Of a stretch of DNA of 64,000 nt, positions 15,401-39,450 are shown in pieces; the first letter of the stretch is position 1, and every line of letters begins with the position of its first letter. The DNA is from Shigella phage KNP5. The notes under the pieces are model-generated. The model saw nothing but the letters and a program-made list of their open reading frames with translations, searched no databases and had not been told where the DNA came from. A program made the position numbers and the translations under genes. Location: the sequence record KX452698, one strand, 5' to 3'.

Positions 15401-18400
15401 NNNNNNNNNNNNNNNNNNNNNNNNNNNNNNNNNNNNNNNNNNNNNNNNNNNNNNNNNNNNNNNNNNNNNNNNNNNNNNNNNNNNNNNNNNNNNNNNNNNN
15501 NNNNNNNNNNNNNNNNNNNNNNNNNNNNNNNNNNNNNNNNNNNNNNNNNNNNNNNNNNNNNNNNNNNNNNNNNNNNNNNNNNNNNNNNNNNNNNNNNNNN
15601 NNNNNNNNNNNNNNNNNNNNNNNNNNNNNNNNNNNNNNNNNNNNNNNNNNNNNNNNNNNNNNNNNNNNNNNNNNNNNNNNNNNNNNNNNNNNNNNNNNNN
15701 NNNNNNNNNNNNNNNNNNNNNNNNNNNNNNNNNNNNNNNNNNNNNNNNNNNNNNNNNNNNNNNNNNNNNNNNNNNNNNNNNNNNNNNNNNNNNNNNNNNN
15801 NNNNNNNNNNNNNNNNNNNNNNNNNNNNNNNNNNNNNNNNNNNNNNNNNNNNNNNNNNNNNNNNNNNNNNNNNNNNNNNNNNNNNNNNNNNNNNNNNNNN
15901 NNNNNNNNNNNNNNNNNNNNNNNNNNNNNNNNNNNNNNNNNNNNNNNNNNNNNNNNNNNNNNNNNNNNNNNNNNNNNNNNNNNNNNNNNNNNNNNNNNNN
16001 NNNNNNNNNNNNNNNNNNNNNNNNNNNNNNNNNNNNNNNNNNNNNNNNNNNNNNNNNNNNNNNNNNNNNNNNNNNNNNNNNNNNNNNNNNNNNNNNNNNN
16101 NNNNNNNNNNNNNNNNNNNNNNNNNNNNNNNNNNNNNNNNNNNNNNNNNNNNNNNNNNNNNNNNNNNNNNNNNNNNNNNNNNNNNNNNNNNNNNNNNNNN
16201 NNNNNNNNNNNNNNNNNNNNNNNNNNNNNNNNNNNNNNNNNNNNNNNNNNNNNNNNNNNNNNNNNNNNNNNNNNNNNNNNNNNNNNNNNNNNNNNNNNNN
16301 NNNNNNNNNNNNNNNNNNNNNNNNNNNNNNNNNNNNNNNNNNNNNNNNNNNNNNNNNNNNNNNNNNNNNNNNNNNNNNNNNNNNNNNNNNNNNNNNNNNN
16401 NNNNNNNNNNNNNNNNNNNNNNNNNNNNNNNNNNNNNNNNNNNNNNNNNNNNNNNNNNNNNNNNNNNNNNNNNNNNNNNNNNNNNNNNNNNNNNNNNNNN
16501 NNNNNNNNNNNNNNNNNNNNNNNNNNNNNNNNNNNNNNNNNNNNNNNNNNNNNNNNNNNNNNNNNNNNNNNNNNNNNNNNNNNNNNNNNNNNNNNNNNNN
16601 NNNNNNNNNNNNNNNNNNNNNNNNNNNNNNNNNNNNNNNNNNNNNNNNNNNNNNNNNNNNNNNNNNNNNNNNNNNNNNNNNNNNNNNNNNNNNNNNNNNN
16701 NNNNNNNNNNNNNNNNNNNNNNNNNNNNNNNNNNNNNNNNNNNNNNNNNNNNNNNNNNNNNNNNNNNNNNNNNNNNNNNNNNNNNNNNNNNNNNNNNNNN
16801 NNNNNNNNNNNNNNNNNNNNNNNNNNNNNNNNNNNNNNNNNNNNNNNNNNNNNNNNNNNNNNNNNNNNNNNNNNNNNNNNNNNNNNNNNNNNNNNNNNNN
16901 NNNNNNNNNNNNNNNNNNNNNNNNNNNNNNNNNNNNNNNNNNNNNNNNNNNNNNNNNNNNNNNNNNNNNNNNNNNNNNNNNNNNNNNNNNNNNNNNNNNN
17001 NNNNNNNNNNNNNNNNNNNNNNNNNNNNNNNNNNNNNNNNNNNNNNNNNNNNNNNNNNNNNNNNNNNNNNNNNNNNNNNNNNNNNNNNNNNNNNNNNNNN
17101 NNNNNNNNNNNNNNNNNNNNNNNNNNNNNNNNNNNNNNNNNNNNNNNNNNNNNNNNNNNNNNNNNNNNNNNNNNNNNNNNNNNNNNNNNNNNNNNNNNNN
17201 NNNNNNNNNNNNNNNNNNNNNNNNNNNNNNNNNNNNNNNNNNNNNNNNNNNNNNNNNNNNNNNNNNNNNNNNNNNNNNNNNNNNNNNNNNNNNNNNNNNN
17301 NNNNNNNNNNNNNNNNNNNNNNNNNNNNNNNNNNNNNNNNNNNNNNNNNNNNNNNNNNNNNNNNNNNNNNNNNNNNNNNNNNNNNNNNNNNNNNNNNNNN
17401 NNNNNNNNNNNNNNNNNNNNNNNNNNNNNNNNNNNNNNNNNNNNNNNNNNNNNNNNNNNNNNNNNNNNNNNNNNNNNNNNNNNNNNNNNNNNNNNNNNNN
17501 NNNNNNNNNNNNNNNNNNNNNNNNNNNNNNNNNNNNNNNNNNNNNNNNNNNNNNNNNNNNNNNNNNNNNNNNNNNNNNNNNNNNNNNNNNNNNNNNNNNN
17601 NNNNNNNNNNNNNNNNNNNNNNNNNNNNNNNNNNNNNNNNNNNNNNNNNNNNNNNNNNNNNNNNNNNNNNNNNNNNNNNNNNNNNNNNNNNNNNNNNNNN
17701 NNNNNNNNNNNNNNNNNNNNNNNNNNNNNNNNNNNNNNNNNNNNNNNNNNNNNNNNNNNNNNNNNNNNNNNNNNNNNNNNNNNNNNNNNNNNNNNNNNNN
17801 NNNNNNNNNNNNNNNNNNNNNNNNNNNNNNNNNNNNNNNNNNNNNNNNNNNNNNNNNNNNNNNNNNNNNNNNNNNNNNNNNNNNNNNNNNNNNNNNNNNN
17901 NNNNNNNNNNNNNNNNNNNNNNNNNNNNNNNNNNNNNNNNNNNNNNNNNNNNNNNNNNNNNNNNNNNNNNNNNNNNNNNNNNNNNNNNNNNNNNNNNNNN
18001 NNNNNNNNNNNNNNNNNNNNNNNNNNNNNNNNNNNNNNNNNNNNNNNNNNNNNNNNNNNNNNNNNNNNNNNNNNNNNNNNNNNNNNNNNNNNNNNNNNNN
18101 NNNNNNNNNNNNNNNNNNNNNNNNNNNNNNNNNNNNNNNNNNNNNNNNNNNNNNNNNNNNNNNNNNNNNNNNNNNNNNNNNNNNNNNNNNNNNNNNNNNN
18201 NNNNNNNNNNNNNNNNNNNNNNNNNNNNNNNNNNNNNNNNNNNNNNNNNNNNNNNNNNNNNNNNNNNNNNNNNNNNNNNNNNNNNNNNNNNNNNNNNNNN
18301 NNNNNNNNNNNNNNNNNNNNNNNNNNNNNNNNNNNNNNNNNNNNNNNNNNNNNNNNNNNNNNNNNNNNNNNNNNNNNNNNNNNNNNNNNNNNNNNNNNNN

Positions 18401-27668: not shown

Positions 27669-27923
27669 AATACAAGTAGTAAATACTCCAGTAGTGCTTA
27701 TACAGGTATTACCTAATTGAACACCAAGCGTTCCATTAGTATTCATATGAAGATTATCATCAATTTTTGTTGATACTTTACCATTCATGTGAATAACAGT
27801 ATTAGATTCAATCACATTCTGAGTGTCATTTTCAATATCAATAAATGGAACAGCTGTTAATGCAACTAGAACAACTGCTAATGCAACTAAACACGCTGCT
27901 AAACAACCATAAACAATTTTCAT
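27669..27923 (-). CDS. small membrane protein with N-terminal signal anchor; 3' end lost in N block (lies just downstream of gene 43, where T4 has imm/imm.1)
   Basis: ATG 27923..27921 with GGAG SD; MKIVYGCLAACLVALAVVLVALTAV hydrophobic N-terminus; frame runs open into the N block. Confidence 0.5.
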
Positions 27924-36103: not shown

Positions 36104-36338
36104 CCTTAATACAAGATACAGCCATATCTTGTAATGATTTAGGTGTGTCATTATCTAAAATGTTGAAGTTAAAAGATACAGCCCAGTCAGTGCAGACCGT
36201 AACCTTTTTAATACAATTATCTTCAACCTCTAGCGGTTCAAACCAATATTCAATAATTTCTTTATGCCCAATATCATCTTTTACTTCGCATTCAAAATGC
36301 TGACTCATCATAACATTTTTAAATTCATCAAAAGTCAT
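36075..36338 (-). CDS. hypothetical protein (T4 46.2 position)
   Basis: 87-aa ORF; ATGA overlap with the gene 47 stop. Confidence 0.55.
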   Translation of the reverse strand: MTFDEFKNVMMSQHFECEVKDDIGHKEIIEYWFEPLEVEDNCIKKVTVCTDWAVSFNFNILDNDTPKSLQDMAVSCIKDAYCEVFDI

Positions 36339-37354
36339 TGTGTTGCCTCTACATATAGCTGATTTGCATATTGAATAAGTGCTTCGCGGTCAGAATCAGT
36401 GATGTCTGGAATTGCATTAATGTATTCTTCCATCAACGTCTGAAGAGATTGAACTTCAACTTCTTCACTATCATCTGACTCGACAGAGTTATCAATCTTT
36501 GACACAACTCGTAATGAATGCACAACTTTTTCTAGTTCAGATTCAAACTTCGTTAGATTTTTGTCTACTTCAGTTACTATAACACGTACTGATAGATTTG
36601 TAAAATCTTTATAGTCAATTTTTCCCTTAAATGGATATTGAATTCGACGATGCCAGGTGGTGTTGTTTGGAATAAATTCCATTCGTTCTGTTTCTGTATC
36701 AAACATCCAGAACCCGCGAGGGTCATTCTCGTCACCTGCAGTTAGTGTCCATGGTGTCCCAATATATCTGACGTTAGCAGCCTCAGAGATAGTATGGAAG
36801 TGACCAGACCACACCTCTTTATAAGTCTTAAGGAAATCAGGTTCAAGACCGTGAGATTTCATTCCTTTATAAAAATAAAATCCATTCAGTTCCCAGTGAC
36901 CAACACAAAAAGAAGCAGATGAAGTTTTGATGTGTTCAAGAATTTCACCAGTATTTTCTTCACACATCCAAGGAATTAAATCAATCAAACATCCGTCAAA
37001 ATCTACTGTAGTAGGCTTATCATATACTTTAACATTAGGATATTTAGCCAAAAGCTCAGTAGAAGCATTTGGATGCATTACATTTTTGTAGTGGAGATCA
37101 TGATTTCCTACAACAGTATGTAGGGTAATACCAGCATCATCAAGCATTTGAACTATTTCACGGGCAAACTCCATAGTTTTATGCGTGATTGCTTTTCGCA
37201 CATCAAAAATATCACCATATTGAATCCATACAGTAATTCCATTTTTCTTAGAATATTCTATCGCTTGCTTAATTCCATCAATTTGAATACCGCGAATCCA
37301 CTCATCATCAGCTTTAACGCCTAAATGCCAATCACCCAAGTTTAGTATTTTCAT
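36335..37354 (-). CDS. 47: recombination endonuclease subunit gp47 (Mre11/SbcD-like phosphoesterase)
   Basis: 339-aa ORF; calcineurin-like phosphoesterase motifs (DWHLG, GDIFD, GNHD, GHWH). Confidence 0.93.
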   Translation of the reverse strand: MKILNLGDWHLGVKADDEWIRGIQIDGIKQAIEYSKKNGITVWIQYGDIFDVRKAITHKTMEFAREIVQMLDDAGITLHTVVGNHDLHYKNVMHPNASTELLAKYPNVKVYDKPTTVDFDGCLIDLIPWMCEENTGEILEHIKTSSASFCVGHWELNGFYFYKGMKSHGLEPDFLKTYKEVWSGHFHTISEAANVRYIGTPWTLTAGDENDPRGFWMFDTETERMEFIPNNTTWHRRIQYPFKGKIDYKDFTNLSVRVIVTEVDKNLTKFESELEKVVHSLRVVSKIDNSVESDDSEEVEVQSLQTLMEEYINAIPDITDSDREALIQYANQLYVEATQ

Positions 37355-37831
37355 GGTGTCTTTTCCATCCTAATTTAGCTGCTTTTGAAACCAGTTCTTT
37401 AATTTTTCCTTTTGTCCATTCAGGACCAGGAGGTTCATGACATAACATTTGCTTAACTCCGTTATTATACCATTTTTTACCTTTATTATGTGATGAAGCT
37501 TTAAATTTATTTGACCTTCCTTTTACATAACCTTTTGGAATATAAGGCAAAAAGGNNNNNNNNNNNNNNNNNNNNNNNNNNNNNNNNNNNNNNNNNNNNN
37601 NNNNNNNNNNNNNNNNNNNNNNNNNNNNNNNNNNNNNNNNNNNNNNNNNNNNNNTGAATCAAATAAGTGAGGATTATCTGAAAGCTCTTTATTATAAATT
37701 TTCTTATACTTTTTAGATAAAACTGAACCATGATATCCAGCTAAATGCCTATCTAAAGACGTAGATCCAATATAAAAAGGAGGAAGTTTATCTCCACTAT
37801 ATATTGTTAAATAAGTTATATATTTTTTCAT
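37332..37831 (-). mobile_element. putative freestanding GIY-YIG-like homing endonuclease gene, interrupted by the 99-nt N gap
   Basis: N-terminal piece (37655..37831) MKKYITYLTIYSGDKLPPFYIGSTSLDRHLAGYHGS has a YIGS...R...H pattern; C-terminal piece (37332..37550) has KGKKWYNNG...PGPEWTKG as in seg-type endonuclease DNA-binding tails; the pieces are in different frames across the gap. Confidence 0.45.
37556..37654. other. N gap (99 nt)
   Basis: run of n. Confidence 1.
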
Positions 37832-37968
37832 ATATCAAGAACCGTCATTGAAATGCAAAATAAAATTATTGAAATAAATCCATCTGGAGTGCTAAAGAAC
37901 CCAATCCAACATGCTCTAGTGAATAGATAAAACGCGAGAAAAAGTATCACATATCCAAGAAATATCAT
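37828..37968 (-). CDS. small hydrophobic protein (46 aa)
   Basis: my own translation MIFLGYVILFLAFYLFTRACWIGFFSTPDGFISIILFCISMTVLDI; its TGA overlaps the ATG of the next ORF (ATGA). Confidence 0.4.
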   Translation of the reverse strand: MIFLGYVILFLAFYLFTRACWIGFFSTPDGFISIILFCISMTVLDI

Positions 37969-37994
37969 TATATCAAACTCCGTATAAAGCTAAA

Positions 37995-38006
37995 GGGCCG
38001 AAGCCC
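37995..38006 (-). other. C(UUCG)G tetraloop hairpin at the 3' end of a-gt
   Basis: GGGC-UUCG-GCCC on the transcribed strand. Confidence 0.6.
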
Positions 38007-38007
38007 T

Positions 38008-39210
38008 TTATTTTGTAATAATGTCAAACTGTTCTTTAAAGCAGAAGCTTGAATCTTGATGCTGATACAAAAATTCATAAGCTTTTTCGCGTTCACGGTC
38101 ATAAAGAGCTCGGTCAGATGACAGTTCTTTAATACGTTCAAATGTTGATTCCATGTCATTTTCATCAAACCAAACGATACCGCTATCATGTGAAATTAAC
38201 GGAGTATTATCAACACGGAATTTTAAATTTTCGCCAGTAGATTTCCAAAATACCGGAATTGTTCCGCACGCACCAAGCTCGAGATGAGTATATTCTAAAG
38301 AACGTTGTAGATATTTTTTGTCCAACTTACTCAACTGATAACCAAATCCGGATTTACTCATGCGTTCAAGCATTTCGCTATTTACATAACGGTCGAGAAT
38401 TTGCGTTGGCAAATTAGGAGCAATTTTAATTTGGTCTACTTGATGAAGACGATAATACTCGTATGGAATTCCTTTTTCTTTAATAGGAATGAACGCTGGA
38501 GAACGTTCCAGACCTTCCATAATAGTACTTAGTCCAGCAGGTTTAAGATGTTTTTCGTGAAAATCAAACATCTGATAAAAGCCTTTCCATGTAGTCGTAC
38601 GACCGATCCAACGGTTGACATTCATATTAATTTCAGAAACATCTTTCCAGTAGGTTGATCGAACCTTCGCAATATCCATAGGAGGCTGAAAGTTGTATAC
38701 GGTCGGTGCTTCTTCAATATCATCAAACAGAGAAACTATTTCTGGATACCATTCTTTCATCAAAACTTTATTAAAATCACCATTATCAGAATGGCTAAAA
38801 ATAACATCAGCACGACGAACAGTTTCTTCTAATCCCAAATTTCGACGTAAAGAAAGAGAAGAATGGTCATGTTGATAAACTACAACACGAACCGAAGGTT
38901 TAATGTTATCAATAATTTTTTTATAGTTATTAATAGTGTCTTCTTCTACTGAAGTAGCAGGAACTGAATTGATAATTAGAATATCACAATCATTTACCAG
39001 CTTAAGTGTTTTATCGTATTCTTTTGCCAATAAAACCGGAATTGAAAATGATTTATAATCATGCGCACAATTACGGGTAAATGATTTATCTTTAGCATAA
39101 ACCAAAGTTACTTCATGACCATTTTTAATAAACCAATCACGCTGCTCGAGAGAAAATTTAGTTACGCCGCAACCTTCAAGACCTCGAGCCATAAAAATAC
39201 ATACTTTCAT
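38008..39210 (-). CDS. agt: DNA alpha-glucosyltransferase
   Basis: 400-aa ORF MKVCIFMARGLEGCGVTKFSLEQRDWF...; size and position as T4 a-gt. Confidence 0.9.
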   Translation of the reverse strand: MKVCIFMARGLEGCGVTKFSLEQRDWFIKNGHEVTLVYAKDKSFTRNCAHDYKSFSIPVLLAKEYDKTLKLVNDCDILIINSVPATSVEEDTINNYKKIIDNIKPSVRVVVYQHDHSSLSLRRNLGLEETVRRADVIFSHSDNGDFNKVLMKEWYPEIVSLFDDIEEAPTVYNFQPPMDIAKVRSTYWKDVSEINMNVNRWIGRTTTWKGFYQMFDFHEKHLKPAGLSTIMEGLERSPAFIPIKEKGIPYEYYRLHQVDQIKIAPNLPTQILDRYVNSEMLERMSKSGFGYQLSKLDKKYLQRSLEYTHLELGACGTIPVFWKSTGENLKFRVDNTPLISHDSGIVWFDENDMESTFERIKELSSDRALYDREREKAYEFLYQHQDSSFCFKEQFDIITK

Positions 39211-39229
39211 TTAATATCCTCATTGTTTT

Positions 39230-39262
39230 GGTTTATTTTACCAAAAATTTATAAAGCAATAT
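39230..39262 (-). promoter_or_regulatory. MotA-box middle promoter upstream of a-gt
   Basis: TTGCTTTA then about 11 nt then TAAAAT on the minus strand, followed by SD GAGGA and the a-gt ATG. Confidence 0.45.
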
Positions 39263-39263
39263 A

Positions 39264-39277
39264 GGAGCCGAAGCTCC
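39264..39277 (-). other. tetraloop hairpin (GGAGC-UUCG-GCUCC)
   Basis: inverted repeat around cgaa. Confidence 0.55.
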
Positions 39278-39450
39278 TATCCGCATAATACACCGTACAG
39301 AGGCTCATTAGAGCTTCTAAATTTTATACGCTTATATGTTATAGTTCCTTCTGCTTTAGCTTTATCATGAGACTCTTTAAAGCGTCTCATCATTTCTACT
39401 TTAGAGGAACGAATTTTATTATAATCTATTTCAGAAGTCTGGGTGTTCAT
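39277..39450 (-). CDS. hypothetical small protein (57 aa)
   Basis: my own translation MNTQTSEIDYNKIRSSKVEMMRRFKESHDK...; weak SD. Confidence 0.35.
   Translation of the reverse strand: MNTQTSEIDYNKIRSSKVEMMRRFKESHDKAKAEGTITYKRIKFRSSNEPLYGVLCG

Follow-up and report, generated by a model that had tools for sequence, protein, structure and literature searches.

SegG and SegF of phage T4 cut the neighbouring gene of a phage that lacks the corresponding seg gene, which results in localized marker exclusion. Their loci lie at genes 32/59 and 56/69, respectively, and SegE is encoded next to uvsW. I-TevI, the intron-encoded enzyme of T4 td, carries a conserved Arg27, a Zn finger and a helix-turn-helix domain. 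The region between genes 47.1 and 47 is empty in T4: the gene order is a-gt, 47.1, 47, the stop codon of 47.1 overlaps the start of gene 47 and the published table of T4 homing endonucleases has no entry at 47.1/47 (PMC2988022).

Here, we analysed a 64,000-nt stretch of phage DNA (the window) in which this position is occupied. Our main reading, to which we assign a probability of about 0.8, is a freestanding T4 Seg-type (GIY-YIG) homing endonuclease gene (seg) that was precisely inserted between 47.1 and 47 and only looks split because of an undersized assembly gap. The gene is an ordinary, already sequenced representative of a familiar class; T4 has no gene at this position, and the suspicion of the initial annotation that this is a point of difference from T4 was well founded. 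A literature search retrieved no paper naming or testing this gene and no cleavage or homing assay of its protein.

Organization of the locus and the assembly gap

Over bases 36300-39300, the window matches Escherichia phage KNP1 (KX452694.1) at 100% identity; this record is a draft without annotation, flagged UNVERIFIED and assigned to Tequatrovirus pss1. A further ~590 T4-like records match the same bases. Gene 47 (36335..37354, minus strand, ATG at 37354), which encodes an SbcD/Mre11-like recombination nuclease subunit, lies immediately downstream of seg. On the other side lies gene 47.1 (37828..37968, minus strand), encoding a 46-aa predicted membrane protein 100% identical to T4 gp47.1. 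The ATG of the endonuclease gene (37831-37829) overlaps the stop codon of 47.1 (ATGA), and its own stop codon (37334-37332) falls 23 nt inside gene 47, in agreement with the overlap first reported. The initial annotation had, however, placed the ORF at 37332-37968, between gene 47 and a-gt. Its lower end and its contact with gene 47 stand, whereas positions 37828-37968 belong to 47.1, which separates seg from a-gt, and the upper end moves to the ATG at 37831. A match to an unrelated conserved T4 ORF, an outcome that the annotation had allowed for, concerns only this 47.1 part of the interval and leaves the endonuclease gene unaffected. The upstream end of the 47.1-seg-47 unit is marked by a G+C-rich hairpin between a-gt and 47.1 (AAAGGGCTTCGGCCCTTT, 37991..38010), found by a hairpin scan. 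A promoter annotated in the Lutter record (NC_054924.1) just downstream of the hairpin and upstream of 47.1 is equivalent to window positions 37967-37992.

In another part of the window, positions 482-27668 form a 27,187-base N run that KX452694.1 does not have; within positions 1-24000, that record holds only one 10-N run. Window position 27669 maps to position 16244 of that record, and the N-filled part seems to be masked or to derive from a differently arranged copy.

The endonuclease gene is represented by two minus-strand pieces separated by 99 N (37556..37654). The 5' piece (37655..37831, residues 1-59) begins MKKYITYLTIYSGDKLPPFYIGSTSLDRHLAGYHGS (59 aa), and the whole translation of 37831-37655 is MKKYITYLTIYSGDKLPPFYIGSTSLDRHLAGYHGSVLSKKYKKIYNKELSDNPHLFDS. 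It contains a GIY-like YITY, YIG, R28 and GY-GS, is identical at 59/59 residues to the 207-aa CDS of Shigella phage vB_SsoM_113 and alone matches phrog_10820 in PHROGs (E=7e-28). The 3' piece (37332..37555, 73 aa, residues 135-207 plus the stop codon) reads ...KGKKWYNNGVKQMLCHEPPGPEWTKGKIKELV... and ends in KLG; positions 37553-37335 translate as FLPYIPKGYVKGRSNKFKASSHNKGKKWYNNGVKQMLCHEPPGPEWTKGKIKELVSKAAKLGWKRHHENTKLG, directly followed by the stop codon. It comprises two IP-G-x-KG(R) / W-NNG tail modules and a terminal helix, shares 72/73 residues with relatives and matches phrog_10820 with E=1e-19. At 37534-37536, in the IP-E-GY-KGR tail motif, the window has AAA (Lys) where all compared relatives have GAA (Glu); as the edge of the gap lies only 20 nt away, the Lys may be a low-coverage base-call error.

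The N run, correctly recognized from the outset as breaking the ORF, is also present in GenBank KX452694.1 (26131-26229), so it is not a product of window masking. At the same position, Lutter (NC_054924.1) and vB_SsoM_113 (LR746311.1) have 223 nt, which yield a single 624-nt CDS of 207 aa, and the surrounding stretch spans 3125 bases in close relatives versus 3001 in KNP1. The N run is therefore too short by 124 nt and stands for ~223 nt, or residues 60-134, among them R68, the catalytic E75, N92 and a NUMOD3-like GQNHPLYGSHN stretch.

The mismatch between 99 N and 223 nt, the two pieces being out of frame as written, the UNVERIFIED flag of the record and the Glu-to-Lys change 20 nt from the gap edge would also suit a gene that is truly disrupted in KNP1, by a deletion or rearrangement of ~124 nt or more, with the N run reflecting a genuine structural difference. 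We consider this improbable: the number of N in a draft does not, as a rule, reflect the real size of a gap, the sequence on either side can be aligned to relatives as far as the N run without any trace of rearrangement and with a single mismatch, 20 nt from the 3' edge of the run, and the gene is intact in every reliable relative. Judged from these alignments, the split of the endonuclease gene looks like an undersized draft assembly gap.

Family assignment of the joined protein

Profile searches with the joined 207-aa protein returned GIY-YIG as the only Pfam match (E=3e-4), at 21.4 bits and thus below the 22.6-bit gathering cut-off; the two window pieces on their own had no Pfam GIY-YIG match. 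NCBIfam gave one weak match, which was spurious. Against PHROGs, the joined protein matched phrog_10820 (E=1e-94), which carries the label 'HNH endonuclease', and phrog_314 (E=5e-18), which is labelled 'homing endonuclease'. A large protein database yielded 170 homologs, 60 of which were aligned and scanned with Pfam; NUMOD3 was found in 31/60 and GIY-YIG in 18/60 (E<=0.01). NUMOD3 was not detected by Pfam in the 207-aa protein itself, and no NUMOD-type C-terminal DNA-binding module was identified there. Of the two profiles that the initial annotation had proposed for the joined protein, GIY-YIG was thus recovered beneath its cut-off and NUMOD3 in about half of the homologs only.

Y33, S39, L56, F57, A71, E75 and N92 are invariant among the 60 homologs, and Y7, Y20, I21, G22, S23, T24, G35 and R68 are conserved in at least 90% of them. 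The GIY/YIG hairpin motifs, Y4-I5-T6-Y7 and F19-Y20-I21-G22, can be read in the window itself (37831-37655); Glu75 and Asn92 are hidden by its gap and were deduced from relatives whose DNA is at least 98% identical. When the protein was aligned with SegA-G and I-TevI, YIG (Y20, G22) was in register and the GIY-like residue was one position off. E75 and N92 align with the Glu and Asn columns of the Seg proteins, N92 corresponding to I-TevI N90 and E75 lying one position from I-TevI E75. The protein has R28 and the homologs mostly have K27, so that, of the Arg, Glu and Asn on which the initial annotation had made the catalytic assignment depend, Glu and Asn are present in the relatives and the counterpart of I-TevI Arg27 is not family-conserved. 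T4 SegA-G likewise lack an Arg in the I-TevI R27 alignment column.

Because PDB sequence searches with the protein and with the 60-sequence profile returned no meaningful match, a fold comparison was needed. The predicted structure has the GIY-YIG alpha/beta fold and best matches the I-TevI catalytic domain, and Foldseek matches among viral models (BFVD) were Seg-like, GIY-YIG and NUMOD homing endonucleases. Searched against T4 proteins, the family profile retrieved SegE (3.5e-12), SegG (5.4e-9), SegC (4.3e-7) and SegD (1.5e-5), then SegB and SegA, with E-values that refer to a 12-sequence database. Collectively, the conserved YIG, E75 and N92 and these profile matches bear out the original proposal of a GIY-YIG, seg-type endonuclease, and the joined protein is a predicted Seg-type GIY-YIG nuclease. 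Its domain plan consists of a GIY-YIG catalytic domain (~1-95), a short NUMOD3-like linker and a tail that, like those of SegE and SegB, has two W-NNG / P-G-W-KG(R) modules and a helix. By tblastn, the catalytic domain was also found at other loci, joined to different tails.

RefSeq (e.g. NC_054924.1 YP_010071805.1) and PHROG 10820 instead place the endonuclease in the HNH type, a reading for which database labels are the sole support. HNH-family Pfam models produced zero matches to the protein, even at E<=10, and zero among the 60 homologs, and both the fold and the motifs are GIY-YIG; an HNH identity was accordingly ruled out as having next to no probability. As no HNH model matches the protein or its homologs, the 'HNH endonuclease' of RefSeq and PHROGs is a misnomer. 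The mislabel is widely propagated for this protein family.

Precise insertion and distribution among phages

The Seg-type gene is inserted precisely. In the alignment, T4 reads ...GATATATGAAAATTTTAAATTTAGGTGATTGG, whereas seg-carrying phages read ...GATATATGAAAAAATAT, then seg, then ...CACCATGAAAATACTAAACTTGGGTGATTGG. It follows from these junctions that seg took over the start context of gene 47 (ATGA) and that gene 47 restarts within the 3' end of seg. On the other side of a-gt, the window (39211-39276, between a-gt and the a-gt.2 homolog) lacks mobB, an HNH gene that is the nearest homing endonuclease gene of T4 and that the initial annotation had not mentioned; a-gt is directly followed by homologs of a-gt.2, a-gt.3, a-gt.4 and a-gt.5. 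With mobB absent and seg present, KNP1 and T4 differ by two endonuclease presence/absence polymorphisms that flank a-gt.

The 47 to a-gt interval was compared across T-even genomes, as initially suggested, by searching the GenBank phage set with 74-nt diagnostic junction queries. The seg/47 junction occurred in 67 records and the empty T4-type junction in 462, T2 among the latter. Carriage amounts to ~67 of roughly 500 Tequatrovirus records, or ~13% of close relatives, and tblastn likewise located a copy at least 90% identical in 67 records. Among 28 gene-47 loci in IMG/VR, seg was present in 0/6 Tequatrovirus loci, where 47.1 abuts 47. Beyond the close relatives, intact homologs lie directly upstream of gene 47 in phages of other genera, namely Salmonella phage SEA1 (80% identity, the same 23-nt overlap) and a QL01-like phage (61% identity, 14-nt overlap). 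This patchy distribution is the pattern expected of a mobile freestanding endonuclease.

In Klebsiella phage KPV15 (NC_055715.1 40010-42005), a frameshift interrupts the seg homolog, and gene 47 is likewise broken, with a 39-aa N-terminal ORF separated from the remainder. With gene 47 frameshifted too, sequencing errors in this record are a more probable explanation than decay of seg.

Synonymous codons at the start of gene 47

Codons 3-6 of gene 47 (37337..37348, minus strand), a candidate immunity mark or co-converted tract, read ATA CTA AAC TTG in the window and ATT TTA AAT TTA in T4, with four synonymous differences at 37346, 37345, 37340 and 37337. In a comparison of three seg-carrying and seven seg-less Tequatroviruses over ~2.8 kb, differences fixed between the two groups were confined to these four sites, a 26-nt patch in a-gt and one further site; next to the insert, the four codon sites are the only fixed differences over 2.8 kb. 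The variant codons are present in 66/67 seg-carrying records and ~9 of ~430 seg-less ones, RB14 being intermediate and 422 seg-less records having the T4-form codons; these counts were taken over records that are not phylogenetically independent, and the association could be simple linkage to a donor haplotype. The lone seg-carrying record with T4-type codons, ERS-1, was discounted as an exception: it is flagged UNVERIFIED_ORG, has frameshifts throughout seg and a-gt and is probably low-quality sequence.

The overlapping seg frame does not depend on the codon changes, as it would stay open with the T4 codons and terminate at the same TGA. In the QL01 group, the seg-carrying phage is ~24% divergent from its seg-less sisters over the first 90 nt of gene 47, versus 9-11% overall. 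On sequence grounds, the codon cluster fits either target-site immunity or a co-converted flank.

Several seg-less phages combine the variant codons with a clean T4-like junction (SHFML-26, UGKSEcP1/2, PBM-1, Ec_YwIITB1, EPIMAM01, BCPEco_001 and BCPSen_003); in at least two of these, a-gt has the seg-type patch as well. These phages are candidates for clean losses of seg or for pre-existing resistant alleles.

The a-gt patch itself (38170-38205, in the 3' part of the gene) contains 5-6 differences from T4 in 26 nt, with two amino-acid changes (T to I and I to V). It occurs in 153 records, including the seg-less PP01, RB18 and Kha5h, and in ~136 Tequatrovirus records at >=95% identity, both with and without seg. 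Its presence in many seg-less phages led us to reject it as a seg-specific alternative target. The patch could equally hold the target, though it is common in seg-less phages, and it looks like a recombination haplotype block.

Proposed homing cycle

The gene is precisely inserted, occurs sporadically, has been kept intact in different genera and is associated with a closely spaced group of synonymous changes in the adjacent gene. The cleavage, homing and expression steps that follow are inferred by analogy with SegB, SegE, SegF and SegG (PMC2330249, PMC2988022). During mixed infection, the enzyme would cleave both strands of the seg-less allele, within the 5' end of gene 47 or close to it, and repair by recombination with the seg-carrying genome would transfer seg together with flanking markers to the recipient. 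The four synonymous changes in gene 47 codons 3-6 would shield the seg-carrying genome itself, and expression would proceed by read-through and translational coupling in a 47.1-seg-47-46 transcription unit. In phages that lack seg, gene 47 would probably be the target.

A more detailed version of this scheme can be put forward only tentatively, and we regard it as possible but doubtful. The enzyme may recognise the first codons of gene 47, whose Mre11-like product is thought to process the breaks that drive homing; the four changes may immunise the carrier; and the insertion may have rewired initiation, so that seg obtained an ATGA coupling to 47.1 and gene 47 became coupled to seg. If so, the seg-less phages with immune codons would represent natural resistant alleles or clean losses, and the locus would offer a compact natural system for target-site immunity and for the gain-and-loss cycle of a freestanding endonuclease.

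Alternatively, seg could be a decaying or inactive remnant, or could have been domesticated, for example as the translation-initiation context of gene 47, with no cutting or homing at all. The lack of conservation of the canonical Arg and the sub-threshold Pfam score are in line with such a remnant, as are the ~9 records that have a clean empty site and 'immune' codons, which fit a cycle of gains and losses where selection on a copy ceases after its fixation. We nevertheless judge it unlikely: ~66 records hold a full-length ORF with protein identity of at least 95%, orthologs at 60-80% identity are intact in other genera, and E75, N92 and YIG are conserved. An Arg is also absent from the corresponding alignment column of T4 SegA-G, several of which are active enzymes (Table 1, PMC2988022).

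Comparison with the Seg endonucleases of T4

With a mobile Seg-type endonuclease as the preferred reading, the T-even phages gain a further sporadic homing endonuclease, and existing concepts are left unchallenged. Its value is mainly for annotation: a Seg-like gene stands at a locus that is empty in T4, the 'HNH' label should become GIY-YIG and the break in KNP1 is a gap written ~124 nt too short. The four synonymous sites in gene 47 provide a testable candidate immunity mark, for which seg-less phages with and without them are natural controls.

As for I-TevI, neither a conserved counterpart of its Arg27 nor its Zn finger or helix-turn-helix domain was detected in the 47.1/47 protein by Pfam and alignment, and sequence searches of the PDB did not retrieve it. 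The best T4 match is SegE (blastp, 28% over 193 aa). Like the 47.1/47 protein, SegE has YIG, GY-GS, Glu and Asn, a tail of the form W-NNG...IP-G(F/W)-KGR and a length of ~205 aa, and it is freestanding between conserved genes; it differs in its locus and shares only ~28% identity. The N- and C-terminal motifs quoted in the initial annotation are real, and the tail motif, (K)W-NNG...P-G-W-KG(R), is common to SegE and SegB. SegG has a related catalytic domain (blastp, 27% over 109 aa, E=4e-5), whereas the C-terminal regions of both SegG and SegF are unlike that of the 47.1/47 protein. The localized marker exclusion known from SegG and SegF is, in turn, the behaviour that we propose for the 47.1/47 protein.
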